A stretch of DNA of 64,000 nucleotides from Iphione sp. A-MEVVRFRX5. Its lineage: Eukaryota. The translations under genes and the position numbers were made by a program. The DNA is taken from contig OZ320314.1 in the NCBI GenBank assembly GCA_976226885.1, positions 37,014,001 to 37,078,000 on the forward strand. Direction: 5' to 3'. Under the pieces are notes generated by a model. It saw nothing but the letters and a program-made list of their open reading frames with translations, did not search any database and was not told the origin of the DNA. Below are positions 2 to 27,343 of this stretch, piece after piece. Numbering within the stretch: position 1 is the first letter of the stretch; every line of letters starts with the position of its first letter.

Positions 2-1279
2 GCACTGCCTGCTGCCTCAAAGGCTCTGTGGAGACAGTGGGACCGCCTCACTATAAGCGATGGGATCCTTCAGAGGAGATGGTATGGACTGGAAACTGGC
101 CCTTCTCGTCTCCAAACGATACTCCCAAGAAAGCGACGCCTGGAGGCTATACAAGAAGTGCACAGCGGACGCACGGGAGGACACCTTTCCGTGGACCGGA
201 CCACCTTCCTGGTGGCGTTAGCATACTACTGGCCAGGTATGCGAAAGGACGTAGAGGCATACTGTCGACGCTGCCACTGTGCACTGTTAAACAGCGATCC
301 CCAGAAACCACAGACTACATTAAGAACCTACCTGGTAGGAGAGCCCATGGAACGATGGTCGATGGATGTTGCTGGTCCACTCCCTGAGACTGCCCGGGGA
401 AATCGCTACGTGTTGATGGTGGGTGACCATTTCACCAAATGGTTGGAGGCGTTTGCGCTGCCGGACCAGAAGGCCTCCCGGGTGGCGACAGTTTTGGCTG
501 AAGAGGTCGTCGCCCGCTATGGGTGTTTCCTAGAGCTACATAGTGACCAAGGCACAAATTTCTGCAGTGAGGTACTTACCGCACTCTGCGACTTCCTTGA
601 CATTAAGAAGACACGCACCACTCCTAGGCACCCTCAAAGCGATGGCTTCATCGAGCGGAGTTTTCGCACCATGGGAAAGATGATTAAGGCCCACTGCTAT
701 GAAGTGGGAGACGAATGGGATGAAGCGCTACCCTACTTAATGATGGCATACCGAGCCTCGCCGCAAGCCAGCACCGGGTACACACCCAACTTTCTAATGT
801 TCGGGCGGGAGGTGGTGCTCCCAGTGCACGCGTTCGCGGGATTCCCGCCTGCGGAGGGAGAGGAGAAGTCACTACCCCACCAGGTAGTGGATGTCGCGCG
901 ACGTCTACAGTCTGCTTATCGTGAAGTGCGGTGCCGCCTCGGCCGGGCCGCTAGAGTGCAGGCGAGAGCGTACGATCGTTGGGTGGAGAAGCGTCCGATG
1001 ACGGAAGGGGACGCTGTCTGGCTACACGAGGCCCAGCCCCCCAGGGGGAAGAGCCCGAAAGTGCATTTCCCATGGACGGGACCGTGGCTGGTAGTGAAGA
1101 AACTGGATGAAGAAAGGATAATCATCAAACGAGCGCGACAGGCGAAACCACGAGTAGTCCACCGGAATCGGGTGCGGACGTACCGGGGGGAGAGTATTCC
1201 CCGGTGGATGCTGGTATGGCGCAAACGCCAGGGAAGTATAGACCAGCCGACAAGGGAGGAAACGACCGCCAGGGGTTAG
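2..1279 (+). CDS. pol: pol C-terminus: integrase (HHCC zinc-binding, rve DDE core, GPY/F-like motif); open from the window edge
   Basis: Frame is open from base 2. HSGRTGGH...CRRC, WSMDVAGP, LHSDQGTNF, IERSFR and PWTGPWLVV are typical Gypsy integrase motifs. Confidence 0.95.
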   Translation, partial: ALPAASKALWRQWDRLTISDGILQRRWYGLETGPSRLQTILPRKRRLEAIQEVHSGRTGGHLSVDRTTFLVALAYYWPGMRKDVEAYCRRCHCALLNSDPQKPQTTLRTYLVGEPMERWSMDVAGPLPETARGNRYVLMVGDHFTKWLEAFALPDQKASRVATVLAEEVVARYGCFLELHSDQGTNFCSEVLTALCDFLDIKKTRTTPRHPQSDGFIERSFRTMGKMIKAHCYEVGDEWDEALPYLMMAYRASPQASTGYTPNFLMFGREVVLPVHAFAGFPPAEGEEKSLPHQVVDVARRLQSAYREVRCRLGRAARVQARAYDRWVEKRPMTEGDAVWLHEAQPPRGKSPKVHFPWTGPWLVVKKLDEERIIIKRARQAKPRVVHRNRVRTYRGESIPRWMLVWRKRQGSIDQPTREETTARG

Positions 1280-1633
1280 AGGACGGAGAGAGAACAAACT
1301 CCAGGAGCAGTCGAATAGCCCGGATGGAGAGGTGAAGTGGATGACCTGATGCTGACGTCAGCATAAAAGAATCCATGGGGAGGACAGATCTCCCGGCGGC
1401 ACTCAAAATCGACTCGTGAGGAGGACGGACCTCCTGGCCCCCTTTAGCGGGGCAAAAAGTCCGTGGGTGGGAGGTGGACCCCAGCCCCACATCGCGGAAA
1501 AAAATCCGGAATGAGCGAAGACGGTGGTATCGGGGGAAGTCCACGAGGGAGACGGGTTCCCTGAAGAGTGCGCGAAAAATCTGTGAAGGGCGACGGGCGC
1601 CCTGGACCTGCTAGGAGATGGAGTTGCGGGAAA

Positions 1634-1771
1634 GGCCAAGCTGGTGGATAGTCCTCTGGAAGGAGGCGTGGAGCCAGGCTGACTGATAGTCCTCTAGAAG
1701 AGGGTGGTGAAGCCAAGCTGGTAGAGTGTCCTCTCGATGAAGTCGAGGAGCCAAGCTGCCCAGCAATCCTC
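1634..1771. repeat. Tandem repeat, ~3.5 units of 38-39 bp
   Basis: Minus-strand units begin GAGGA and share CAGC(T/C)TGGC; unit lengths 38, 39, 38, then a partial unit. Confidence 0.8.
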
Positions 1772-1885
1772 TCGGGGAAGGCGGTGGTAGGAACTATTAC
1801 CAAGAAGGTGTTGATCAATAGTGTAGGAATGTACAAATTTTCCCCCGCCCAAGGAGATATAACAGATGAAGCTATGGATGAAACA

Positions 1886-1891
1886 TTTATT
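1886..1891 (-). terminator. Candidate poly(A) signal of the antisense accessory gene
   Basis: AATAAA on the minus strand ~75 nt after the TGA at 1967-1969. Confidence 0.5.
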
Positions 1892-1966
1892 ACAAGGAAA
1901 CAACGAACTAGGTTCAACAAATGTACAAGCTATTTACATCTGATCCAATCGGGCTGCCCGGATAAG

Positions 1967-2618
1967 TCACCAAGAGGCTCTACGGGGAGAGGCCTCATAA
2001 TCGTCGTCGTCCGATACTACAATGGGAAACCATGTATAGTCCCCGGGAAGGACGCCAGGATAGCAGGCCGCGAGCACATCCGGGGGCCAGGCGGCCAGAG
2101 AAGCCCGTCCGAGAAGAGGTCCCACCTCTGGGGAGGACATAGGAGTCGGACGTGAGGGGGTGTCCACCGGGGTACCCCAATCCATCGGCGAGGGCGATCG
2201 GGGACAGCTGGACGAGGAGAAGGACTCCCATGAATCCGATGACGTGGTGGAGGACCCCCATGAGACGGGGGACGGAGTGCGGAGGTAGTAGAGGGACCAG
2301 GAGTTCCCCTCACGGTCGTCCACACCCTGTTGGGGGGGAACGTCGAAGCTGCCCAAGTAGCGAGCTACCTCATCTACTCCCAGATCGGGCGAGATGGTGT
2401 CACACCGGGGCATCCAGGAAGGTACCGGGAGCGGGACAGGAGGCTCGATGGGCTGGATGGATATGTCGACATAATGAGATGGGCCAAATAGTCGAACTTG
2501 CCCTGGAGCCGGAATGTACAGTGGGCGATTGATCACAGGGTAAAGACCAAACACCCTGATGGTGGGGCCGGGAGTCCCGACATCCACATACCGTAGGAAA
2601 CTGTCTGGAGGAGGGGTG
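1967..2618 (-). CDS. Exon 2 of a predicted spliced antisense accessory gene (Pro/Ser-rich, acidic SIM-like C-terminus)
   Basis: Strong acceptor (T32 tract, then cttctcttcttcttcttgcag; AG at 2620-2619). Frame is open from the acceptor (TPPPDSFLRYVDVGTPG...) to TGA at 1969-1967 and ends ...WFPIVVSDDDDYEASPRRASW. Confidence 0.6.
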
Positions 2619-2639
2619 CTGCAAGAAGAAGAAGAGAAG

Positions 2640-2643
<4 letters not shown>

Positions 2644-2675
<32 letters not shown>
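2644..2675. repeat. A32 homopolymer (T32 on minus strand, inside the predicted antisense intron)
   Basis: Directly visible; lies ~25 nt upstream of the minus-strand acceptor. Confidence 0.95.
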
Positions 2676-2677
<2 letters not shown>

Positions 2678-2837
2678 TATGAAGATATCACAAACACTGT
2701 GCTGGGAAACTTACCTGCTGGAAGGATGAAGATGATCCAACCCTCAACAAGGAGGCCCAACTCAACAGCAAGTGATGAACTCGAGAACTGGCAACAACCA
2801 TTGTGGTGGAGGCCTCCCTTCTGCTCCGGAGACCTAC

Positions 2838-2926
2838 CTGGGTCCTGGAGGGAAACAGCAATCACTCCTCTCAGGCAAGTAAAGGCCATTGTGGGTGAGC
2901 CCAGTGATGTAGTTTGGCAACTCCAT
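2838..2926 (-). CDS. Exon 1 (coding part) of the predicted antisense accessory gene
   Basis: ATG at 2926 (catcATGG), MELPNYITGLTHNGLYLPERSDCCFPPGP, then a phase-2 donor AG/GTAGGT at 2838/2837 that joins exon 2 in frame (246 aa total). Confidence 0.55.
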
Positions 2927-2954
2927 GATGTGCACTGCAGGATGACTGGAGTCA

Positions 2955-2991
2955 GACTGACGCCGCACCCCCGGCCGCTACGGCTTATATA
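2955..2991 (-). promoter_or_regulatory. Core promoter (TATA + Inr) of the antisense accessory gene
   Basis: TATATAA at 2991-2985 and TCAGTC at 2960-2955 on the minus strand, ~33 nt apart, upstream of ATG 2926. Confidence 0.55.
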
Positions 2992-3007
2992 GCGACAGCG
3001 AAGGCTG

Positions 3008-3732
3008 TTCGTGGTACCGCGAAAGCTAGTTGCTGAGTCGCGGACCCACGAGCGGCGAAAACCGAACTCGTGGTGCCACGAGGAAAACATCGACAGCCGG
3101 GAGACAGGCCTAACAGGGAAAACATTGAGGAATTTGGTAATCTACGAATGAAAGGGGGTCGGGGTGCCACGAGGACAGCTCGGGGAGCCACGAGAGAGAT
3201 AAATGCTCGGGGTGCCACGAGTGGCTACACCAGAAGTGGGGAACCAAAACATCCGCCGAGCCTCGTTTGGACTACAGACGCCAGCTAGAAGCCGACAGCG
3301 GAGAGAGAAATTGGCAGCTCGTGCCCCCACGAGTACACTCCTCGAAATGAAGAGTTTACGAAGAAACAGCGAGAAGTAGATGGATTGAAAACACAATCTC
3401 GAGGAAGCAGTCGAAGTACAGTCGTGGTGCCCCGAGTGGAGTTCGTGACACCCCGAGCGTGATCCAGCTCGTGGTACCACGAATCAGAGACGTCGAGATC
3501 GACTGGATTCCACACCAAGTAGGTAGGGGCCCCCGAGTGTGACCAGAGGGGCGAGAGACTCTTTGCCCCCTCTGTTTTCTGCCACTGGGAAAAAGGGGGG
3601 GGTCTCCCCGAGTTGAATCAGAGGTTTCTCCCCGGTGTCAGTTTGTGGTGTTCATCGTGACACCCCGAGCGACAGGTGGGCCTGTGTCAGACGTGGTGCC
3701 CCGAGTGGGAGTGAGTCGGTGGTGCCGCGGGT
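3008..3732. promoter_or_regulatory. Array of >=11 copies of a 16-bp imperfect palindrome (NTCGTGG-NN-CCACGAG type)
   Basis: Copies start at 3008, 3037, 3067, 3158, 3179, 3206, 3318, 3421, 3442, 3468, 3654 and 3690, with degenerate copies near 3522, 3597 and 3717. Spacers are unrelated. Regulatory role is inferred. Confidence 0.75.
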
Positions 3733-3742
3733 CCCATCCAGA

Positions 3743-5512
3743 ATGCCTCGCAGGAAAATTGAAGGAGAGAAGGTAAAGAGGAGGGTTTTGCAGCCCGATG
3801 AACCTAAGCCCCCGGGGACCGTGTTGTGCGAACAGTGTGTGAAGCGACGCCCTTTTCGCCCTGGGGACTCTTTACAGCGCCATATCGAGGAAATCCATCT
3901 GGGGAAGAGGAAACGTGATATGAAATGTTTATTTTGTCCCAGTGTTATAGGTGACGAGCAGTCCTGGGTGGCTCACCAACGAAAATTTCATCCATGGGTG
4001 ACTGATATGGGACTGATTGAGCGACCATATAGGCGGTTATATGACGTGCGACCTGCCACGACAGGGGGTGTGACGGTACCTGACGACGAGATCACCCGGA
4101 TTGTCCTAAGGGCTAGGGAGTTGCGGTCACAAGGTTGGGCCCTAACGCAGGAGGAGGCAGAACATTTGTTGGCAGAGGAGCCCCACAGATCAGCACCTCC
4201 CCTTCCCTCACGGGTAGTTAGATGGGGGACACCGCCAGCCACACCGGCCACCAGGGGGGTCCCCACGATAGACCTCACCAGCCCCCGGAGTTCCCCGAAC
4301 ACCAGCACAGCTTCAGGGCGACAGGTCGTGGACCTCACCTCCCCTGGGGGGTCTCCCGAGTTTGGTGCAACCGCCGGAGTGGGTCCTGTCTGCCAGAAAC
4401 CAGGGGACACTCCCACACCAGGAATGCTACGGGCCGACACTCCAGGGTCCCACGCCGGGGAGCCAAAGGGGGGGGCTTGTGGAAGTCAGAGCGCATCCAT
4501 ACCACAGGATCCACAGGTGGGCGGCTTGGGAGTGACGAGGGCCCCCAGCAGGGGGCAGGGGGATCCTTTCCTCGGCCAAGGTAGTTTTGAGGGGGGGACC
4601 CCTCTCCACCAGGGGATTGCGGGGAGTGGCAGTGAAGCACCCTCCAGCTACCGCTCTGTGTCTGGTTGGCCCCTCACCCCACGGGAAGGCCCTGTGTCGT
4701 GGGATCTATCCGACGCCGCCTCGGTACTGGCTCGTCTCCAGGAGGTGACTGGCTCCGAGGCAGGGAGCCCCCGCCAGACTCCGGAGAGGCCCCCTGCCGT
4801 CTCCACGAGACTACCAGTGGGGCGGCTTTCTCGTCTCATCCAGTCCCTGTTGCCACCGGACCGGGCTGAGCCTGCGGCCGCTCGGGTACATAACATCCTG
4901 GATGGCTTGGTCTCGCCCCACCAGGCCACTACCCGTGCTCCTGCTTCACCCATGAAGATCCGGCTCCCCTCTCAGGTGGTATGGCCACCAAAAACCTGGG
5001 CTCAGCTGAGCCCCGCTAAACGTCTCATGGCCTGTATGGCCATGGCATGGGTCTTACATCTTGTCGAGGAGGAGGATACCGTGCCCGCTACCTTGCTGGG
5101 CCCGCTACAGTGGCGTCCGTATCTGATCCTCCCTGGGCTTGGCATCCCTGAGTTCGAGGACTGGGGGAATTTCGCTGGCCTACTCCATCAACATAACTGG
5201 ACTGTTGAGGCGGCCGAGACGCTCGTACGAGATCTCCAGCCTGGTCTTGCGTGGGATCCCGACTCCGCGATGAATGTTGAGAAGTGGGAGTGGGAAGCAG
5301 TCAACGCGGGGGCCTGCTATGCAGTGGCCCGACCCACCCTAGTCGACATATGCCGGAATGCTCCGGGTAGACAGCGCCGTCTGGGGGAGCAAGACATCTG
5401 GGCGAGTGGTAGCGCCCCAGGTAATGGTACAGGTCCTTTGAGAACACCCAGGCCCTCTGATGTAAGGGAGCTGGAAAAGTCCGGCCCCTCAGTTTGTCAG
5501 AAAGAGCAGTAA
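3743..5512 (+). CDS. Accessory ORF (589 aa from first ATG): two C2H2 zinc fingers, two SIM-like motifs, Pro/Ser/Gly-rich middle, W-rich C-terminal region
   Basis: Uninterrupted ORF; CEQC-x14-HIEEIH and CLFC-x12-HQRKFH; TIDLTSP and VVDLTSP. The ORF track start at 3635 is a GTG; the first ATG is 3743. Confidence 0.8.
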   Translation: MPRRKIEGEKVKRRVLQPDEPKPPGTVLCEQCVKRRPFRPGDSLQRHIEEIHLGKRKRDMKCLFCPSVIGDEQSWVAHQRKFHPWVTDMGLIERPYRRLYDVRPATTGGVTVPDDEITRIVLRARELRSQGWALTQEEAEHLLAEEPHRSAPPLPSRVVRWGTPPATPATRGVPTIDLTSPRSSPNTSTASGRQVVDLTSPGGSPEFGATAGVGPVCQKPGDTPTPGMLRADTPGSHAGEPKGGACGSQSASIPQDPQVGGLGVTRAPSRGQGDPFLGQGSFEGGTPLHQGIAGSGSEAPSSYRSVSGWPLTPREGPVSWDLSDAASVLARLQEVTGSEAGSPRQTPERPPAVSTRLPVGRLSRLIQSLLPPDRAEPAAARVHNILDGLVSPHQATTRAPASPMKIRLPSQVVWPPKTWAQLSPAKRLMACMAMAWVLHLVEEEDTVPATLLGPLQWRPYLILPGLGIPEFEDWGNFAGLLHQHNWTVEAAETLVRDLQPGLAWDPDSAMNVEKWEWEAVNAGACYAVARPTLVDICRNAPGRQRRLGEQDIWASGSAPGNGTGPLRTPRPSDVRELEKSGPSVCQKEQ

Positions 5513-5667
5513 AATTTTGGGTAAAATTTCTTACCTAGTCCATACCTGCTAGCTATGGATGTGGCGTGGTTAGATTGTTGCTGGTGAGTGATCCCTTACC
5601 GTCTGGTAGGGGACCAAGCACCTGACTCAAGGAACCAGAACCACTAGGGACTGTTAATGAGAAGTTA

Positions 5668-6527
5668 GTTACCTTCATTGCTATCTGTGATTAATCGTAT
5701 GCTGTGTGGTAGTAAGTGCACCACGATTGCCATGTCCGGTTAGGACTGCTAAAGATTGTTATCAATGTCACAAGCACTCTATTTGTTACCTTGACCGATT
5801 GCTTCCTCAGATGTTTACGGATTCCTGTTAATGGTGTTTCAAATCAAGTTACCTTGTCTATGCCCTTAAGAGGGTTAGCTGAGTTAGTAAAATGTCTGAA
5901 GGGAAAATTGTATTTCCCCCAAAAAATATAAAAGGTCACTTGGTGAGACTGTTGCTGATGCCATGAGCGCCACACCCGTTACCTTGATCCAACGTTTACC
6001 CAAGATGTTTGTGACTGATTACTGCTGTTAAATATTCGAATCAAGTTACGAAAAGTTGGACGGTTAGAGAAAAGGATCTAGAAGGGAAACTGTATTCCCA
6101 CAAAAAGAAAAGGAAGCTTGCTGTCTGTGATTATTGATCCACCTAACCAGGATAAGTATTTACGTAAGGTTACTGACTGTGATTGAGGATTTTATTGCTA
6201 AGTGTTGAGATTTGTTGATCAGCTGTTGCTCAGGAGAGTTGGACTTGTTACCTTGATTGGCTGTTTACATAGATAGATTAGCCTAGTCCTAAGTCAACTA
6301 CTCTAGGTTGTTATCTTTGCCGTCGGATTGTGTGAGACCAGGGCCACTGTGTACAGTTGGCCACCTAGATTGCTACTGATAATTACTAGAATGAGACATG
6401 GGACCGAGTATATGGCCCAGACAGGTTAGAGTCAGAAGTTGAGAGAAACTAAGAAGGGAAGCTGTATTCCCCCAAAAAGAAAAGACTGTTATTTGTGATA
6501 AGGATTTCTCAGAAGAACTTGTTACCT
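5668..6527. repeat. Dispersed short motifs in the pre-PPT spacer (GTTACCT x6; GAAGGGAA-n-TTCCC-AAAAA x3)
   Basis: GTTACCT at 5668, 5785, 5848, 5978, 6247, 6521; the ~27-bp module at 5898, 6081, 6453. Confidence 0.8.
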
Positions 6528-6651
6528 GTTGGCTACCTGTGATTACCCTATTGGTTACTTAGATGTATGTTACCATGATTGGTTGTTTACCTGAGATAGA
6601 TTTTAGATGACACTAGTTACCCATGCTCATTTTGAGGCGTTGGCATGTTTT

Positions 6652-6664
6652 AAGAAGGGGAGAG
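6652..6664 (+). other. Polypurine tract (PPT)
   Basis: AAGAAGGGGAGAG directly before the TG of the LTR. Confidence 0.85.
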
Positions 6665-7550
6665 TGTAGGGGTGTTCGTGGTACCACCAGCGTAAGGCTA
6701 AGTAAGTCTATTGTATCATATGACGGTTCGTGGTACCACCAGCGTAAGGCTAAGCAAGCCTATTGTATCTTGTAATGGTTCGTGGTACCACCAGTGTAAG
6801 GCTAAGTAAGTCTATCGACAGTTCGTGGCACCACGAGTGTAAGGCTAAGTAAGTCTATTGTATCATATGACGGTTCGTGGTACCACCAGCGTAAGGCTAA
6901 GTAAGTATATCAACAGTTCGTGGCACCACGAGTGATGTGGGATGTACTAGCTGACCTCAGGGAGCCCGTTCGTGGCACCACAAGTGGTTTGTATGCTAAA
7001 AATTTATATCCAGGGTCCCTGGGTAATTAGAAGGTCACCTTGGACCCTGGGGATCCAGGTCATTGCTACTTTGTAACTAGACAGCTATGAGCTGGGTTCC
7101 CTGAACCCTGGGGATCCAGGTCATTGCTACTTTGCATCTAAACAGCTAAGAGCTGATTGGTAGACAGTAATAACACAAGTCAGTTTGTAACCATTTTATT
7201 CCATCATGTGATACATTGTTGCTATGGCAAGTGAACACCTGGTCTTGAGGATTACTATAAATATGGGCCCTGTGTGGCAAATAAACCAGTCTGTACTTGG
7301 ATACCGTTGTGGAACTTGTCTCTTCAGGGGAGTCATTAGGAACACATACCCACTTGGAGTACCATAAGGGAATACTTACCCGATAGTTCTACATTGTGAG
7401 GATCAGGAACAACTAGCCAGGATATATCCACACATAGCTGGAGTTACTTAGAGGAAATATTAACACAGAAGTTACACTGGATTAATTCATTTAGGACTAG
7501 ACACACTATAGTTGGAGTTACCAAGTGGGAGTACAACCACGCTTACTACA
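6665..7550 (+). repeat. 3' LTR (right end either 7393 or 7550)
   Basis: Starts TGTAG; TATAAA 7256-7261, AATAAA 7280-7285; CTACA at 7389-7393 and 7546-7550. The second LTR is not in the window, so the end cannot be confirmed. Confidence 0.75.
6675..6984. repeat. U3 tandem array (52/43-bp periods) carrying 7 copies of TTCGTGG(T/C)ACCAC(C/G/A)AG
   Basis: Copies start at 6675, 6727, 6779, 6822, 6874, 6917, 6969; most are followed by GTAAGGCTAAG. Confidence 0.9.
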
Positions 7551-8287
7551 GTAACGACAATGGACTCCAGTGCATGTAGTCTTTATATTGTTTTCCCTCC
7601 CTCCACTATACTGAGTCCCCTCACTCTTTAGATAAACCCTCCGAAATTCTATACTCTGCTAATCTTCCCTCTGCTAAACTACCCTCCACCCAACAATATA
7701 TCCTCTTCTGGCGAGTTTCATATCAGATGTCCTGAAGTCTAAACTGGCATACCGGAGCATGTATTTAGATTGATTAGATGTCTGCCTGTGACATAATTAT
7801 GGATATTCTCTCATCATTCTGAGATGAAATCATCGAACATGAGACGGCATGTTTACTAGATTGGGGTTAGTCTTTTGCTATTTTCACTTACTGTCCGTGC
7901 AGTGTGGTTGGCAGCATATATCTAGGAACGAAAGAACTTGGATATCGCAATTCTTGTAAACTCTCATTTAAAGGCCAGATTACAGGGGAAACCAGATCAC
8001 GACACACACAGGATTTTGACAGTACCAAACATCTACATGTATTTCTTTATATGATGAGACAAAAGAGGGGACCAGGCTGCAACAGAGACCAAATTTCTCC
8101 AGTCCCAGAGATGGTCCTCTAAGCAAGAGTTTACTGTACCTGCAAAAACAAGTACATGTATGTGAAAAAGGCTGAATGAACACAAGATTTACAAATAACA
8201 TGAAGTGAAGCAGCTTTTACTGAACTTTTTGAGCACGTGGAGGCTACATAAAATAAATAATCTTCTACCCTCAATGTATAAATGATA

Positions 8288-12437: not shown

Positions 12438-14366
12438 CTAATTGGGCTTGAGTTGGAATTTTGTCAGGCGGGCTGCCCTTTTTCTGACATCCGGTAAGTC
12501 ATTCCACCCCACTGCCGCTCTGTACCTTAGGCTGCGGCCAAATGCCCTGTTCTTTGGCCGATCCACCCTGATTCTGGCCGAATGTCCTCTTCTCGTTTTA
12601 GATGAGTCAGCTAGTGGCAGCAGCCCTAGTCTGACTTGCTGGTGAGTGGCTCGCAAGGCCCTCCAACCCACCAGATCCTCCACCCTTTCTATACCACCTT
12701 TCTCACAAATACGTTTGGCGGACCATGGTGGGTTTATCTGCAGACACATCCTAACGCACCGATTAAGATGTAGCTGCATGTTGCATAACACCGCCTTGGA
12801 ACAGCTGTAAAGCACTACTGCGGCATAGTGCAGATGCGGCATTACAAGTGTTTTAAATAGGTATAACACCGTATGCCATGGCAGCATTTTCTTCACTCTG
12901 GACACTTTCAGCGATGCCGCCCACATTTTGCCTTTCACGTCCTTTAGCATCTCGCGCCCTGTCATCTTGGCATCCAACAGATAACCAAGAAGCCGCACTT
13001 TTGTGCACATTGTGAGGTCTGTCCCATTTACTTTGAGGTCTAATGGTGTACCAGCCGCTTTGCCCAGCGGCATGTAACAGCACTTGCCTTCTGACAGTAG
13101 TAGGCCGTGTTCGTGACACCATTTCGACACTCGGTCCACGCTGTGTTGACATGCCCCTCTTAGCCTAAGCCAGTCATTTGCTTTGACAATTATGGACAAA
13201 TCATCAGCGTAGAGGACGGCATCACAGTAGTTTGGCATGTGCTTGACCAATTCGTCAATCACTATGCTGAAGGCCGCAGGGCCAAATACTGATCCCTGCG
13301 GCACTCCATGCTCGATTTTCCTCAGTGAGGAATTCTGTCCATAGCACCTTACGTACTGTTTTCGATTGTCCAGGTAACTATGAACCAGTCGTCGTATGGC
13401 GCCACTTGCCCCTGCTGTCTCCAGCCTTCTGAGAACCTCCACTGATGGAATGAGGTCAAATGCTTTTCGCATGTCAAAGGCTAAGAGACAACAGTATAAT
13501 CCTGAGTTCATAGTTTCCATTGCTCTATTGATTGTGTAGGTAACGGCTGTCTCTGTGCTTCTCTGGGGTCTGAAGCCATGTTGTCTATCGCTAATGAACT
13601 TTTGCTTGTCAAGCTGTTGCATGACATCAGCAAAGAAACATTTCTCAAAGACTTTCCCGGGTAATGGCAAGATAGACACGGGTCTGTAGTTGCTCATACA
13701 GTTTGTGTCACCACGTTTGTGGAGTGGTGTCACCCATGCTATCTTCCACTTCCCCGGGTACTGTCCACTTTGTATGATGCGGTCGAAGATCCAATGCAGA
13801 AAGTCGAGGTTCAGGAGCAAAAGTTGCTTCATCACCCTTGTCGGTATACCTTCTACACCTGAAGCTTTTTTGATGTTGATTGTTTTGACGAAGGTCCGCA
13901 GTTCCGAAGGAGGCGGCAGAGTGACATCAAACGTAGAAGCACAGCTTGTCACCTGAACATCACCCCTGGCGGTCACCGGCGGTGCTAGGGCTGCTACCTC
14001 ATCAATAAAGAAGTTATTCAACTTCTCCGCGACTGACTCTTCGTGACCATCTCCGGGGTTGTTCTCCTTTGGCAGTTTCATCTGACCTTTGCCGCGCCCC
14101 AGCGCCTTGTTAAGTACCTCCCATGTTTTGGATGAATTCCCCTTCGTCTCCTGCAGTTTCAGCTTCCAGAAGTCCCGCCTGTCGTTTAGCAGTGTGCGTG
14201 CCACCTGTTTATTGAGGTGCTTGAAGATTCGAAATGAATCCACGCACCCATACTTTTTCCATTTTGCGAAAAAGTATTTCTTATCCTTGATCAACTCTAG
14301 TGTCGCATCACTAGGCCGAAACCCGTTGATCCCCTCCTTGACTTTAGTGGTTTTCTCAGGGCACAT
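12438..14366 (-). CDS. LINE ORF2, reverse transcriptase portion
   Basis: YRPVSILP, QHGFRPQRST, FDMRKAFD, GVPQGSVFGP, YADD motifs. Confidence 0.92.
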   Translation of the reverse strand: MCPEKTTKVKEGINGFRPSDATLELIKDKKYFFAKWKKYGCVDSFRIFKHLNKQVARTLLNDRRDFWKLKLQETKGNSSKTWEVLNKALGRGKGQMKLPKENNPGDGHEESVAEKLNNFFIDEVAALAPPVTARGDVQVTSCASTFDVTLPPPSELRTFVKTINIKKASGVEGIPTRVMKQLLLLNLDFLHWIFDRIIQSGQYPGKWKIAWVTPLHKRGDTNCMSNYRPVSILPLPGKVFEKCFFADVMQQLDKQKFISDRQHGFRPQRSTETAVTYTINRAMETMNSGLYCCLLAFDMRKAFDLIPSVEVLRRLETAGASGAIRRLVHSYLDNRKQYVRCYGQNSSLRKIEHGVPQGSVFGPAAFSIVIDELVKHMPNYCDAVLYADDLSIIVKANDWLRLRGACQHSVDRVSKWCHEHGLLLSEGKCCYMPLGKAAGTPLDLKVNGTDLTMCTKVRLLGYLLDAKMTGREMLKDVKGKMWAASLKVSRVKKMLPWHTVLYLFKTLVMPHLHYAAVVLYSCSKAVLCNMQLHLNRCVRMCLQINPPWSAKRICEKGGIERVEDLVGWRALRATHQQVRLGLLPLADSSKTRRGHSARIRVDRPKNRAFGRSLRYRAAVGWNDLPDVRKRAARLTKFQLKPN

Positions 14367-15201
14367 TTCTCCTAGGACTATCCTGGTGCAATTCTCCAGA
14401 TGTTCCCATGATTTCTCGTGGTCCGGGTCCTTTTTCGAAACCGCCCATCTCCAAAACTTCTCTTTGAAGTGCGGCGAGGTCCAGTTTGTTCCACTGTCTA
14501 AATGTCTTCACTTTGTCCACCAGACGATTGCCCCCTTTCTTCAGCACTGCCAGCACTGGTAGGTGATCACTGAGTGTCCAATCCAGAACGTCGCAGGCCA
14601 ATCTGCCTGCGTAATTGACCCATATTTGGTCAATCACGCGGTCAGAGTCTAGCGTAGTACCCTTCCTGATCAGCTGAGTGAATCCATTGCTGACAAGCAG
14701 ATCCACTAGACTGACCCCAGCCTTTTCTCCTCCCATGAAGTTGAAGTTGAAATATCCAGCTATAGTCACGTCGCATCTGTGTAAGGTTTTGATAAGTTGG
14801 ATAGTTTTATCAAATTCCTTGATACTATCCTTGATTCGATCATGTGGTGGCCGATACACACCAAACACTGCATGTTTTCTTCTCTTGCTGATTTTCAGCA
14901 AGACCCCCAGGAATTCACTCTCACCATGTTCCGGGCTTGTGCAAAATTCCCGTATAATGTCAATGGTTTTTTTCAGATAGATCACAATCCCCCCACCCTT
15001 GGACTTCTTTGCATTCTGTCTATCTTGTCTTACCTGTTGGTAACCCGGAACTTTAATCCCCCCATCTAGATGTGACTCATTGAGCCATGACTCCGTGATT
15101 ATACAGATGTCTACGTCTTGTTCACGGAGACATATCTCCAGGGCGTCTACCTTAGAACGTAGACTTCTTATGTTATATGCAACCAATGTTACTCCTTTCA
15201 T
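14356..15201 (-). CDS. LINE ORF2, APE endonuclease portion (separated from RT by a 1-nt frameshift near 14431-14435)
   Basis: AYNIRSL, ITESWL, GGGIVIY, GVYRPP, IDQIW, SDHLPV. Removing one A from GAAAAAG restores ...EKDPDHEKSWEHLENCTRIVLGEMCPE. Confidence 0.88.
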   Translation of the reverse strand: MKGVTLVAYNIRSLRSKVDALEICLREQDVDICIITESWLNESHLDGGIKVPGYQQVRQDRQNAKKSKGGGIVIYLKKTIDIIREFCTSPEHGESEFLGVLLKISKRRKHAVFGVYRPPHDRIKDSIKEFDKTIQLIKTLHRCDVTIAGYFNFNFMGGEKAGVSLVDLLVSNGFTQLIRKGTTLDSDRVIDQIWVNYAGRLACDVLDWTLSDHLPVLAVLKKGGNRLVDKVKTFRQWNKLDLAALQREVLEMGGFEKGPGPREIMGTSGELHQDSPRRNVP

Positions 15202-15874: not shown

Positions 15875-17413
15875 TTAAGACTTCTTGAAAAATGTGTCTA
15901 TGGTTGGCTGGACCACCTTTCTTGATAGAACTCTGGAGGAGTGGGCCTGCTGTAGTGGTACCAACAGATCCAAACATTCAATGTCGCCTTTGATGAGGAA
16001 ATGCTTCCTCATTTTCAAGAACATTTCCTGAATCTCTGGGTCACTGAGCTCACTGCCCTCTTCCTGTTTCTCCTCTGTCGGCTCTTCCTCCTCTTCCTCA
16101 ACCTCATCAGGGGCCCAATCTTCCTCATCGGGACTGTGAGTGCAGAGTTCATCATCAAGGCTCTCATACTCTGTGTGGGTCATTCTGGATTCCTCTGGGA
16201 TGCCCTCCTGGATTTTTGTGAGGAGGGAGATGAGAGGTTCATCATCAAGTTCAGGAGGACACGACACACGTTCAGCATCATCAGGAACTGGCCTAACCCC
16301 TGATCTTATGAAGCATGACTCCACTGTGGTTGGTTTTACTGCTTTTACTGCAGAATTCAACCAGCCCACTACCAGCTGCATATCCACTGTGCCCACAGCA
16401 GCCCTGGCGTCGATGGAACCATCCAGCCTTGAAACGACGTACTGTAGCAGTGATTTCTTGTAGTGTAATTTTACTGCCTGGATGATGCCCTGGTCTAATG
16501 GCTGGAGAACAGATGTGGCATTTAGTGGCAGAAACACAACTTTAGTGTTAGACAGGTTGATTCCCCCAGGATGAGAAGGGGCATTTATTAAGCACACTTT
16601 TCTCCCTTGAGCTGCCATTTTCCGATTGAAAGAGTGTAGCCACTCCTCGAAAATGGTCGTTGTCATCCATGCTTTCTTGTTATGGCGCCATGTCACGGGC
16701 AGCGATGACATATCCTTCAGATTGCGCCAACAGCGAGGTCGTGCAGCTTTGCCAATAACCAATGTCTTCTGAAACTCACCAAGGGCATTCACACAGAACA
16801 TCGCTGTGATCTGCTCCTTGGATTTTTTACTGGCAGAGACGTCTGTACCCCTGACACTCAAAGTCCTATCTGGTAATGCCCTGTAAAAGATGCCGGATTC
16901 ATCGACATTAAAAATGTCTCTTGGACCATATCCCTCGAGGATGGTGGGTAGACGCTCCAGCCATTCTTGAACTGTGACTTCATCAACTGATGATTTCTCA
17001 CCAACCACCTTGAATGCTCCAATACAGTGACGTTTTTTGAATTTCGTGAGCCATCCTGTAGATCCCTTGAAGTCATCCATACCAAGCTCTTTGGCTATAG
17101 CCAAGGCCCTGGTACAGAGCATAGGCCCTGAAACCGGTACATTCAAAGCACGAATCCGAGAAAACCATGAAAAAACTCTCTCATCGAGTGTAGAGGAGTT
17201 TGTGGAGAGGCAACGACGCTTTGCTGTTGGATCAGCACAGTGCTCAAAGTCATTCAGAATTTCTGCTTTTCTCTTCAAGATGCAGCCGACTTGAGTTTTC
17301 CCCACTCCGAATTGCTCTGCAAGCTGTCTCAAGCTACGACTTGGACTGTTCTTGATAATCTGAACCTTCTCACGAAGAGTCAGATCTCTCCTCTTGGTCT
17401 TGGTCACAGGCAT
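15875..17413 (-). CDS. pogo/Tigger (CENP-B-like) transposase, 512 aa from ATG 17413
   Basis: N-terminal HTH (LTLREKVQII...LAEQFGVGKTQV), second HTH (FKGSTGWLTKFKKRH), DDE-type core (IFNVDESG, WMTT, LQPLDQGII), acidic tail, C-terminal QPTIDTFF. Confidence 0.92.
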   Translation of the reverse strand: MPVTKTKRRDLTLREKVQIIKNSPSRSLRQLAEQFGVGKTQVGCILKRKAEILNDFEHCADPTAKRRCLSTNSSTLDERVFSWFSRIRALNVPVSGPMLCTRALAIAKELGMDDFKGSTGWLTKFKKRHCIGAFKVVGEKSSVDEVTVQEWLERLPTILEGYGPRDIFNVDESGIFYRALPDRTLSVRGTDVSASKKSKEQITAMFCVNALGEFQKTLVIGKAARPRCWRNLKDMSSLPVTWRHNKKAWMTTTIFEEWLHSFNRKMAAQGRKVCLINAPSHPGGINLSNTKVVFLPLNATSVLQPLDQGIIQAVKLHYKKSLLQYVVSRLDGSIDARAAVGTVDMQLVVGWLNSAVKAVKPTTVESCFIRSGVRPVPDDAERVSCPPELDDEPLISLLTKIQEGIPEESRMTHTEYESLDDELCTHSPDEEDWAPDEVEEEEEEPTEEKQEEGSELSDPEIQEMFLKMRKHFLIKGDIECLDLLVPLQQAHSSRVLSRKVVQPTIDTFFKKS

Positions 17414-24366: not shown

Positions 24367-27343
24367 TTAAGTGCCTTTTGCTCTTCGCAAACAGCCATCA
24401 GTTCCCAAGTGGGAGGAATGTATCTTCTCCTTCAACGTCTGGTGCTCACTCTTTGGAATGACGATCCTCTCACCCCTAAAGACTAGTCCATCATGGACTG
24501 CCATTTCATCACTCATGGAGTAGTATGGGTGCACAATTGGTGGGGCCTGTGCTTTCTCACTGGGCCATCCTTCCAGGATGACCTGCTTAAGGGCAGTCAT
24601 TGTCGGATCGACCTCGGTTGCCTTCCGTATTGCCTCAATTCGGGATTCTGTCATGGCAACATACTTGGTTGCATTGACATTCTCAAACTCTTCATGTCGT
24701 CCTTCCGTAGTCTGTCGATAAGCTCGAGATAGGGTGTCTCTTTGCCGGGAGTATAGGAGACGGTCACCTCATACTGCTGCAGCCTCATCAGCATGCCTTG
24801 TAGGCGCTTTGGTGCATTTGCCAAAGACTTCTTCATGATGTTCTGCAGTGGTTTGTGATCTGACATCACACTGACAGAGCGGCCAAATGTGTATTGGTGA
24901 AACTTCTCTGCACTCCACACTATTGCTAACATCTCCTTCTCGATTTGGGCGTATCGAACTTCTGTATCTGTGAGGGCTCGGCTTGCAAATGCTATCGGCT
25001 GACCCTCCTGCAGAAGAGCTGCGCCCAGTCCAGTCTTGCTCGCATCACATTGGATAGTGAGTTCCTTCTTGGGATCGTAATAACGGAGGACTGGCGCCTC
25101 ACTCACTAGCCTCTTCACTTGTCTCAGTGCCTTGTCTTGCGCACCGGCCCCATTCCATGGGACATCTTTCCTCGTCAGTTGTCTGATCGGCTCCATGGCA
25201 TCAGACAGTCTAGGTAGGAACCTTGCGAGGTAGTTAACGAATCCATTCAGGCGTTGCACACCCTCCACATCGCTCGGTTGCTGCATCTGTTTCACAGCCT
25301 CCACTTTTGCAGGGTCCGGCTTCAGGCCTTCACTCGTGATCAGATGTCCTAGAAATGTTACTGACTTCTGTCTTAACTTCATTTTCTCTGCATTCAGTCG
25401 TATACCGACATCCTGACATCTCTGCAACAGCTGTACAAGCTTGCGATCATGGTCCTTGCTGGATTCCTCTTCTGTCTGGCCTTTACCGTAGACCATCAGA
25501 TCATCAGCCACACATATCACACCCTCTAAATCCTGGATGCAGCTGTGTAGCTTCCTGGCAAAGATCTCTGATGATACGCTTGTCCCGAAAGGCAATCTCA
25601 ACCATCGGTATTGGCCATGTGGGGTGGCAAAAGTAGTCAGGTATGATGACTCTTCGTCCAGCATCACATGCCAGTATCCGGACTTCAGGTCCATGGTGGA
25701 GATGATCTTTGCCTCGGATAACTCTGGGAGCACATCATTCAATGTGCAGAGCGGGAAATGCTTCCTCTTCAGTGCCTTGTTCAAGGGTCCGGGATCAATG
25801 CAGATCCGCAGGTCACCGTTTTTCTTTGTTGCAACGACCATGGCACTCACCCATTCTGTCGGCTCTTGCACAGGCTTGATCACCCCTTTTGTTATCAGAG
25901 AGTCAAGTTCAGCCTTGATCCTGTGCCTTAATGCCACTGGCATGCGCCTACATGGAGACACTGTAGGGGTCACAGTGGTGTCCACGCGTAGCGTCGCAGT
26001 GCCAGGTAGATTCCCAATTGTGTCTTCAAAAACGTCTTCATATTTCTTTTCACTGCCGCAACCCTCTCAAAATTCTCCGTGTTCACTGAGATGAGGCCCA
26101 TCTTCTGGCTTGCGGATACTCCGAGGACTGGCATGAGGTTGTCATCTTCCACCACCACAAATTTGACAGAGTGCTGGTCATTGCTCACAGGGTTAATGAC
26201 CTCTAGGATGCACTCCCCGATCGGATGCTTCAGGCTCCTGTCCCACATCTCCAGTGTGCTTGTTGGCGGATCAAGCTTAGCCTTCTTGACATGCTTGAGT
26301 GGAATGAGGTTCACTGATGCACCAGAGTCTACTTGGAACTTGACTGGTTTTCCAGCCACTGTCATCTTTGCATAGATGAGTTTTTTTAGACGGCCCTTCA
26401 CACTGTTGACCTTGCTCACTCCATTTATTTCATATTCATCACTGTCGGTTTCTTCAGAGTCTTCCTGATCTACGGCATTCACTTTCTTCTTGCTCTTCTT
26501 GCACACAACAGCAAAGTGGTTTCGTCCGCCGCAATCATTGCACTGGCTCCCCCAGGCTGGACATGACTCCTTCTTGTACTCATGTTTCTGGCCACAGAAC
26601 TTGCAGGTTCTGCTCTTCCGGCTCTTTGGTTTGTCCTTGTCTACCTTCCCTGATCCCTTCTCGCGCTTTGACTTTGGCTTTGGTTTCGACCTTGGCCTCA
26701 CACCATGGACTTCATCTCCTCCCTTGGTGTTCATCTGTTTCATCTTGGCCCCTGCAGCTTCATTCGCTCGGCAGATGTCAATGCAGCGGTTTAGGGTAAG
26801 GTCCTGTATCTCCAGTAGCTTTTTTCGGGTCTCGTCGTCTCGGATCCCCATCACGAGTCGATCACGTAGAAGTGTGTCGGTCAGGCAGTCACAAAAGTTA
26901 CAACTTTTTCTCAGGTAGCGCAAAGCTGTGACGTAGGCATCAAAGTTCTCATCCGTGGCCTGCTGTCTTCCGTTGAACTTGTATCATTCATATGTCTCGT
27001 TCAGTTGCCCGATGATATGCTGATCAAACTTTGCTATTATCTGCTGTACCGTGCGATCGTCTTCATTGGCTTCGTCCTTGAATGCAAACCCGTTATACAC
27101 ACGCAATGCCTCGGGTCCGATTGAGTTCAAAAACATTGCGGTTTGATATTTTCTCTGTTGTGTGTCTAAATTGGAGATTATGGCATAGTTTCTCCACTGC
27201 TGTTTCCACAGGTTCCAATTTTCGACTTTCCCAGCCTGTAAATCTAGGTGCCCTGGGGCCTTTATCCCTGGTATGAATTTGGCATGTGCTGCTTCAGCAC
27301 CTCCGGCCCTGGCTCCCTCTCCTTGCTCCTGGTTCCCCGGCAT
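24367..27343 (-). pseudogene. gag-pol pseudogene
   Basis: ORF pieces 26984-27343, 25970-26923, 24651-25985 and 24367-24654 join into one polyprotein once the stop and frameshifts are corrected. Confidence 0.88.

Follow-up and report, generated by a model that had tools for sequence, protein, structure and literature searches.

A 16-bp dyad is densely repeated in two non-coding places of the window (the whole 64-kb stretch of DNA that was analysed), at the start of an LTR upstream of its TATA box and in the gap that separates ORF3 from a predicted antisense gene; no other part of the window shows such a cluster. We interpret this array as a probable cis-regulatory module of the surrounding element, a Gypsy LTR retrotransposon that carries two accessory genes. 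The sites are most probably read as double-stranded DNA by a two-fold symmetric dimer that places one subunit on each half-site, and the two clusters would then serve as enhancers for the LTR promoter and for an internal divergent promoter. The binding protein may be encoded by the element itself, most simply as the two-finger product of ORF3 and otherwise as the antisense product; we favour this overall reading without giving it quite an even chance. All results on the array are based on the one copy of the element within the window, the 5' LTR and the 5' part of which lie outside it. The coordinates of the features are compiled in Table 1.

Table 1. Features of the element and third ORFs of related loci (positions in the window unless a locus is named).
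Feature	Position	Strand	Description
pol 3' part	2..1279	+	Gypsy integrase, zinc-binding domain and rve core (Pfam E 1e-16 and 1e-13)
Spliced antisense gene, predicted	1886..2926	-	ATG 2926, donor 2837, acceptor 2619, stop 1969-1967, AATAAA 1891; from signals and frames only
Antisense core promoter, predicted	2955..2991	-	TATA 2991-2985, initiator-like TCAGTC 2960-2955, about 31 nt apart; function inferred
Sites 1 and 2, mirror pair	3004..3058	none	Rare half-site variant common to both; inverted repeat; predicted local hairpin
Internal array	3008..3705	none	12 imperfect 16-bp palindromes, half-site TCG[T/G]GG, 2-nt centre, unrelated spacers; non-coding, between two divergent predicted genes
ORF3	3743..5512	+	589 aa; C2H2-like finger 1 at residues 29-52 and finger 2 at about 62-84, long Pro/Gly/Ser-rich middle, predicted helical C-terminal region
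Polypurine tract	6652..6672	+	from sequence
3' LTR	6673..7839	+	TG start directly after the polypurine tract; TATA 7256, AATAAA 7280, minus-strand TATA 7008
LTR array	6675..6984	none	7 copies of the internal-array motif, beginning at LTR base 3; six in a 43/52-bp tandem repeat
TatD third ORFs	L027:7518-9032, L028:6267-9212, L029:6941-9367, L030:1789-4488, L033:2193-4235, L034:2164-4578, L037:2827-6129		Long ORF with C-terminal TatD DNase

An earlier note on this DNA had described at least 11 copies of the motif with a fixed half-site spacing between unrelated spacers, and all three statements were borne out. Twelve sites lie within three mismatches of its pattern (starting at 3008, 3037, 3067, 3158, 3179, 3206, 3318, 3421, 3442, 3468, 3654 and 3690), 11 of them within two, and both copies that had been quoted as examples, at 3067 and 3468, are present. 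In 1000 dinucleotide shuffles of the same region a mean of 0.24 sites (maximum 3) was reached at three mismatches and a mean of 0.03 (maximum 1) at two. When gaps from -2 to 15 nt were scanned, the 2-nt gap was found in 12 left/right pairs of half-sites and every other gap at most once. Identity over the 66 site pairs amounts to 0.79 inside the sites versus 0.28, the chance level, in the 10-nt flanks; eight columns are invariant in all 12 sites. No tandem repeat was called in the region by Tandem Repeats Finder, and two unsupervised scans rediscovered the motif (21 matches versus 6-7 in shuffles, and 18 dyads versus 2). The motif is thus real, but the description as a 16-bp palindrome holds only in the loose sense, as every site is imperfect with 4-7 of 8 pairs complementary and not a single one is perfect.

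The borders of the internal array agree with the earlier description on one side only. The minus-strand TATA begins at 2991 and hence, as had been stated, 17 nt from the first site. The last copies had been said to abut the ATG of the zinc-finger ORF, but the final good site ends at 3705, 37 nt upstream of the ORF3 ATG at 3743, and the stretch 3717-3732 was rejected as a copy, with 2 of 8 pairs complementary and a score outside the top 30 of the array-trained matrix. Additional motif matches at 1949 and 5713 had low matrix scores and were left uncounted. Within the array, a GGGG-type half is found on the left of the sites at 3158, 3179 and 3206 and on the right of those at 3421, 3442, 3654 and 3690; this layout, left in the left cluster and right in the right cluster, forms a mirror that matches the divergent genes. 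Sites 1 and 2 probably arose by inverted duplication; folding predicts 12.5 expected base pairs between them, with their flanks pairing as well; possibly they form a real hairpin.

The array had been placed in the divergent intergenic region, where it is indeed present, but it is not confined there, since seven more copies are found in the 3' LTR. A position weight matrix, as the earlier note had proposed, was applied here within the 64 kb: after training on the 12 internal sites it gives the seven LTR sites 17.4-25.4 bits, and the next best sequence of the window reaches 9.7. Conversely, training on the LTR sites places nine of the 12 internal sites above any other sequence in the 64 kb. At two mismatches, no copy of the motif occurs in the other 56 kb of the window. 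The left-half CpG is retained in 19 of 19 sites, and the CpG ratio of the LTR spacers is 0.32. The former suggestion of selected sites rather than a simple tandem duplication is consistent with all tests run, namely the fixed spacing, the flanks at chance level, the lack of a called tandem repeat and of spacer homology, and the occurrence of the motif also at the LTR. Where the 3' LTR ends is uncertain; the best terminal inverted repeat (6 nt, perfect) is obtained with an end at 7839, and 7344, 7411, 7465 and 7695 are alternatives. A minus-strand TATA at 7002-7008 adjoins the last LTR site, so that the LTR is possibly bidirectional. A 14-mer at 7218-7231, 38 nt upstream of the plus-strand TATA of the LTR, presumably resembles an RFX X-box. 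The hexamer GTTACC occurs nine times on the plus and never on the minus strand of 5512-7700 (6 and 14 times in the remaining 56 kb), its copies sitting in degenerate repeats that the 3' non-coding region contains; it may serve as another binding motif or, in antisense, as sites resembling splice donors.

The element is, by its sequence, a Ty3/Gypsy LTR retrotransposon: a Gypsy-type integrase ends pol, and a polypurine tract is followed by an LTR that starts with TG and carries a TATA box and a poly(A) signal. The closest database relatives of the integrase are 47-52% identical, and the named matches are animal proteins. For the predicted antisense gene, the reading frame was derived from the exon length and a three-frame translation. 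Its first exon of 89 nt is in frame with exon 2, which comprises 216 codons behind an acceptor preceded by a long pyrimidine tract, and by arithmetic this gives a product of about 246 aa. No Pfam match was obtained for exon 2, and a match of the antisense exon to a phage tail spike (E 0.002) was treated as probable chance. Within the predicted intron, at 2718-2709 of the minus strand, a good acceptor is immediately followed by a perfect donor (2715/2714), a pair that resembles a recursive splice site or a 3-nt micro-exon. Between the integrase and the end of the antisense gene, 1635-1758 is occupied by a 38-bp tandem repeat of 3.2 copies, the degenerate units of which at 1665-1742 are loosely motif-like; given low matrix scores, they were left uncounted. 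No tRNA gene was found in the 64-kb window. Three other mobile elements were recognised by eye from translations, all on the minus strand: a LINE-like endonuclease and reverse transcriptase (12438-15201), a Tigger/pogo-like transposase (15875-17413) and a second, broken Gypsy-like element (24651-27343). No motif cluster is present in any of the three.

The ORF3 product shows the Cys2His2 ligand pattern twice; the ligands of finger 1 align with those of the relatives, and recognition helices are modelled. The fingers score 16.4 bits, below the Pfam cut-off of 27, and the best Foldseek matches are C2H2 proteins at a non-significant E of 0.5. The standard C2H2 code expects Arg at helix position -1 for triplets ending in G. 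Assigned by hand, the helix of finger 1 has Pro at -1, Ser at 3 and Arg at 6 and that of finger 2 has Asp, Ser and Ala, so that under this code the residues do not fit the half-site, neither finger providing Arg at -1. Homologues of ORF3 were not found at E≤0.001 among 7999 candidates, nor for residues 395-555 at E≤10 among 427; 1.84 billion representatives yielded five generic zinc-finger matches without a family-level homologue, and the Atlas searches gave weak matches or none. The C-terminal domain was modelled with a pLDDT of 42 and no fold match. Residues about 407-438 show a weak WPP-containing match to residues 486-517 of P0035, a protein that belongs, with P0006-P0010, P0037 and P0040, to the integrase clade of the window. 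This match was equalled in 21 of 2000 shuffles and was the best of 120 proteins (score 48 versus 46 for the runner-up), which hints at a conserved domain in the C-terminal region. A homodimer prediction for residues 1-150 returned a score of 0.01 and no answer either way. Among the ORFs after the integrase there is no env, Tas-family or VANC-type Pfam match. Near ORF3 no sense-strand TATA was found apart from a TATA-like stretch at 3199. Expression of ORF3 may therefore depend on splicing of the LTR transcript, and the internal promoter may be active in a single direction.

Bacterial genome bins, searched with an integrase alignment, yielded 52 Gypsy loci (L001-L052). These loci are probably animal DNA carried into the bins as host contamination, and some of the contigs (L014-L017, L022) are full length with paired LTRs. 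Twenty-four loci, equivalent to 21 families since L014-L017 form a single one, extend for at least 1500 nt after the integrase, and in 14 of them (11 families) this part contains a sense ORF with a strict C2H2 pattern, as compared to 69 of 5700 shuffled ORFs and 4 of 56 antisense ORFs. Pfam searches with 16 C2H2-pattern ORFs assigned seven of the nine with N-terminal fingers to C2H2 families, three above the curated cut-off; a profile of the relatives' fingers matches solved C2H2 proteins down to E 1e-31. From the 14 of 24 loci and the Pfam matches, a finger-bearing ORF3 therefore appears to be a trait of the lineage. The remaining seven, which are long, carry a TatD DNase domain at their C-terminal end (Pfam E 1e-33 to 1e-43) and come from one supported integrase clade; no description of TatD ORFs in animal Gypsy elements was found in the literature searched. 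In L008:5766-6548 a complete LTR is followed by a primer-binding site; a splice donor lies shortly after the LTR TATA, which suggests that ORF3 of this locus is expressed by splicing.

The motif of the window does not cluster in any of the 52 related loci (8 scattered matches in 348,199 nt). A dispersed palindrome array comparable to ours was likewise not found by de novo searches of 21 downstream and 10 upstream regions or by a dyad test of 17 loci. The strongest dyad counts, seven in L030, five in L004 and four in L037, all come from tandem repeats, and the four of L008 represent a scattered hexamer. ORF3 thus often exists without an array; as all surveyed relatives fall outside the clade of the window and several have no LTR, they provide a weak test of self-regulation.

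The variable pair of the dyad, positions 5/12, reads T-A in 10 of the 19 sites, T-C in four, G-A in three, T-G and C-A in one each, and G-C in none; Watson-Crick pairing is restored in none of the nine varying sites, and one has a T-G wobble. The halves thus vary independently and use the same two spellings on opposite strands, which suits a symmetric dimer reading double-stranded DNA and not base pairing. A role of the sites in RNA or single-stranded DNA, where hairpins or long-range stems built from them would control splicing or serve packaging or dimerisation, is accordingly one of the readings that we regard as unlikely. It would account for a region that folds better than shuffles (z -5.75), for left-cluster sites that are nearly reverse complements of right-cluster sites and able to pair with them, and for the well-predicted hairpin of sites 1 and 2. 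However, this z-value stems from the sites: when they are kept and the spacers alone are shuffled, 8 of 40 controls on the plus strand and 5 of 40 on the minus strand equal or exceed the folding of the region, to which the spacers thus add nothing. Pairing partners alternate and the centroid structure is weak, the variants break pairs without compensation, no Rfam match was obtained in 1200-8000, and antisense transcription would start only downstream of the internal array. Slightly less probable still is a neutral relic, in which the motif has merely survived from an internal LTR copy that decayed or from a tandem repeat that eroded. Thirteen bases are identical between site 1 and the start of the LTR, the LTR copies do sit in a tandem repeat, and a central TGGTGCC resembles the primer-binding site of L008. 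Against such an origin, 260 and 273 of 300 spacer shuffles (sites kept) align with the LTR as well as the region itself, 234 and 301 of 500 shuffles score as high as the real comparison of its left and right halves, and eight columns invariant in 12 of 12 sites next to flanks at chance level are unexpected under neutral decay. The least probable of the alternatives, and a very improbable one, assigns the sites to the integrase or another transposition protein, similar to subterminal transposase-binding repeats, with the internal cluster aiding complex assembly. The first LTR site does start at LTR base 3, within the terminal region contacted by integrase, but the opposite LTR end has no array, the internal cluster adjoins a TATA box and, to our knowledge, retroelement integrases read only terminal bases. 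Double-stranded DNA sites are thus most likely, because the spacers have no homology to the LTR and the variants break pairing.

The identity of the protein that reads these double-stranded sites is a separate matter. Recruitment of a host factor (an activator, insulator or repressor) by the element to both regions would imply the same double-stranded reading, and we give it about one chance in three. Sites for host factors are normal LTR content, gypsy recruiting su(Hw) and ONSEN heat-shock factors. The half-site with its T/G tolerance resembles, as we assume, two triplets of EGR/KLF/SP-type sites, and CCACG presumably the cores of GLIS and BEND3 sites. The poor fit of the ORF3 finger residues and the relatives that have ORF3 but no such array point the same way, as does a CACNAG N-box in 14 of the 19 sites. 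The other five sites lack this box, though, and with the second half fixed in addition, an array of N-boxes for host HES/Hairy proteins was rejected. None of these monomer motifs explains an obligatory inverted second half at a distance of 2 nt. A common host site is also difficult to reconcile with a motif that is missing from the other 56 kb at two mismatches and unclustered in the related loci, and, among the literature matches listed for both half-sites, no title points to a eukaryotic factor with this dyad. For a binder encoded by the element, the C2H2-patterned ORF after the integrase in 14 of 24 related loci would be evidence in favour, while the distant relatives without a comparable array and the misfit of the ORF3 finger residues would count against it. 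A link of the array to the element's own ORFs is plausible. More specifically, an animal Gypsy element might encode its own dimeric two-finger C2H2 regulator, which recognises a private palindrome at the LTR and at an internal divergent promoter and drives a spliced antisense gene; for this complete version we see roughly one chance in three, or marginally more.

LTR retrotransposons are generally thought to depend on transcription factors of the host; sequence-specific regulators encoded by the element itself are established in complex retroviruses and plant DNA transposons and no more than suspected for plant Gypsy elements with extra ORFs. HTLV combines Tax-response repeats with antisense HBZ; Tax itself is not known to bind DNA directly. 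The su(Hw) sites of gypsy and the Tax repeats and HBZ of HTLV are similar to the present case in their clustered short sites that control a retroelement and in an antisense regulatory gene. The available parts of the literature on foamy viruses describe Tas/Bel1 as a DNA-binding dimer, encoded by the virus, with targets in the LTR as well as in an internal promoter (PMC4929722; also PMC8670036). At the sequence level our element is alike in that an accessory gene follows pol ahead of the 3' LTR and that the LTR and the internal promoter region have a motif in common, but it is a Gypsy element without detected env, no similarity to Tas was found for its C2H2-like candidate, and it carries many conserved palindromes and an antisense gene. 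According to the accessible sections of PMC5735166, VANC proteins of Arabidopsis VANDAL elements bind short motifs that are densely packed in the non-coding parts of these transposons and have been multiplied through tandem repeats. Common to both is a dense, element-specific short motif that is rare elsewhere and lies beside an accessory gene, with a tandem origin visible here in the LTR only; VANDAL, in contrast, is a plant Mutator-like DNA transposon and the VANC21 9-mer has one orientation, whereas the present motif is a 16-bp dyad and its element an animal LTR retrotransposon, in which no VANC domain was found. In sequence terms, the element is a member of neither the Tas nor the VANC family. 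Plant Retand/Tat Gypsy elements have antisense TRP28 ORFs and repeat arrays of unknown role (PMC11963269, in the part available), but these arrays are tandem, whereas the sites described here are dispersed and common to the LTR, the zinc-finger ORF is in sense and TRP28 was not matched. Third ORFs after pol that are not env are also known from LTR retrotransposons of bdelloid rotifers, where they encode GDSL esterases, DEDDy exonucleases or membrane proteins (PMC5408684, main text as far as available); the word 'zinc' is absent from that main text. Neither was 'zinc' found in the accessible text of surveys of molluscs, annelids and errantiviruses (PMC6238403, PMC8556966, PMC8220671, PMC13524379), nor 'retrotransposon' or 'LTR' in that of bioRxiv 10.64898/2026.08.24.746577. 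In the accessible literature searched, we found neither a description of this element architecture nor a zinc-finger ORF3 of its lineage; such ORF3s may already be annotated in Repbase or in supplements. What may be new is a case of a kind already known, an array of cis-regulatory motifs in a transposon that may itself encode the binder.

If the array is the cis-regulatory module that we propose, its regulator would couple LTR transcription to the accessory genes; with a binder encoded by the element, these genes would switch on themselves and the LTR in a feedback loop, or they would shield both from silencing. The LTR sites would have been multiplied by tandem duplication, and the internal sites would have been kept while their spacers diverged, or gained locally, with one inverted duplication still visible. 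The candidate protein and a sharply defined candidate site adjoin each other, so that one gel-shift and one reporter assay could test the self-regulation of an animal retrotransposon; should a host protein turn out to bind the sites, the array would nonetheless supply a precise dyad motif for finding it. Independent of this, the survey indicates that zinc-finger and TatD-nuclease third ORFs recur after the integrase in this Gypsy lineage. Should the self-encoded regulator prove true, the element would represent a Tas-like or VANC-style feedback circuit that has evolved independently in a widespread invertebrate Gypsy lineage.
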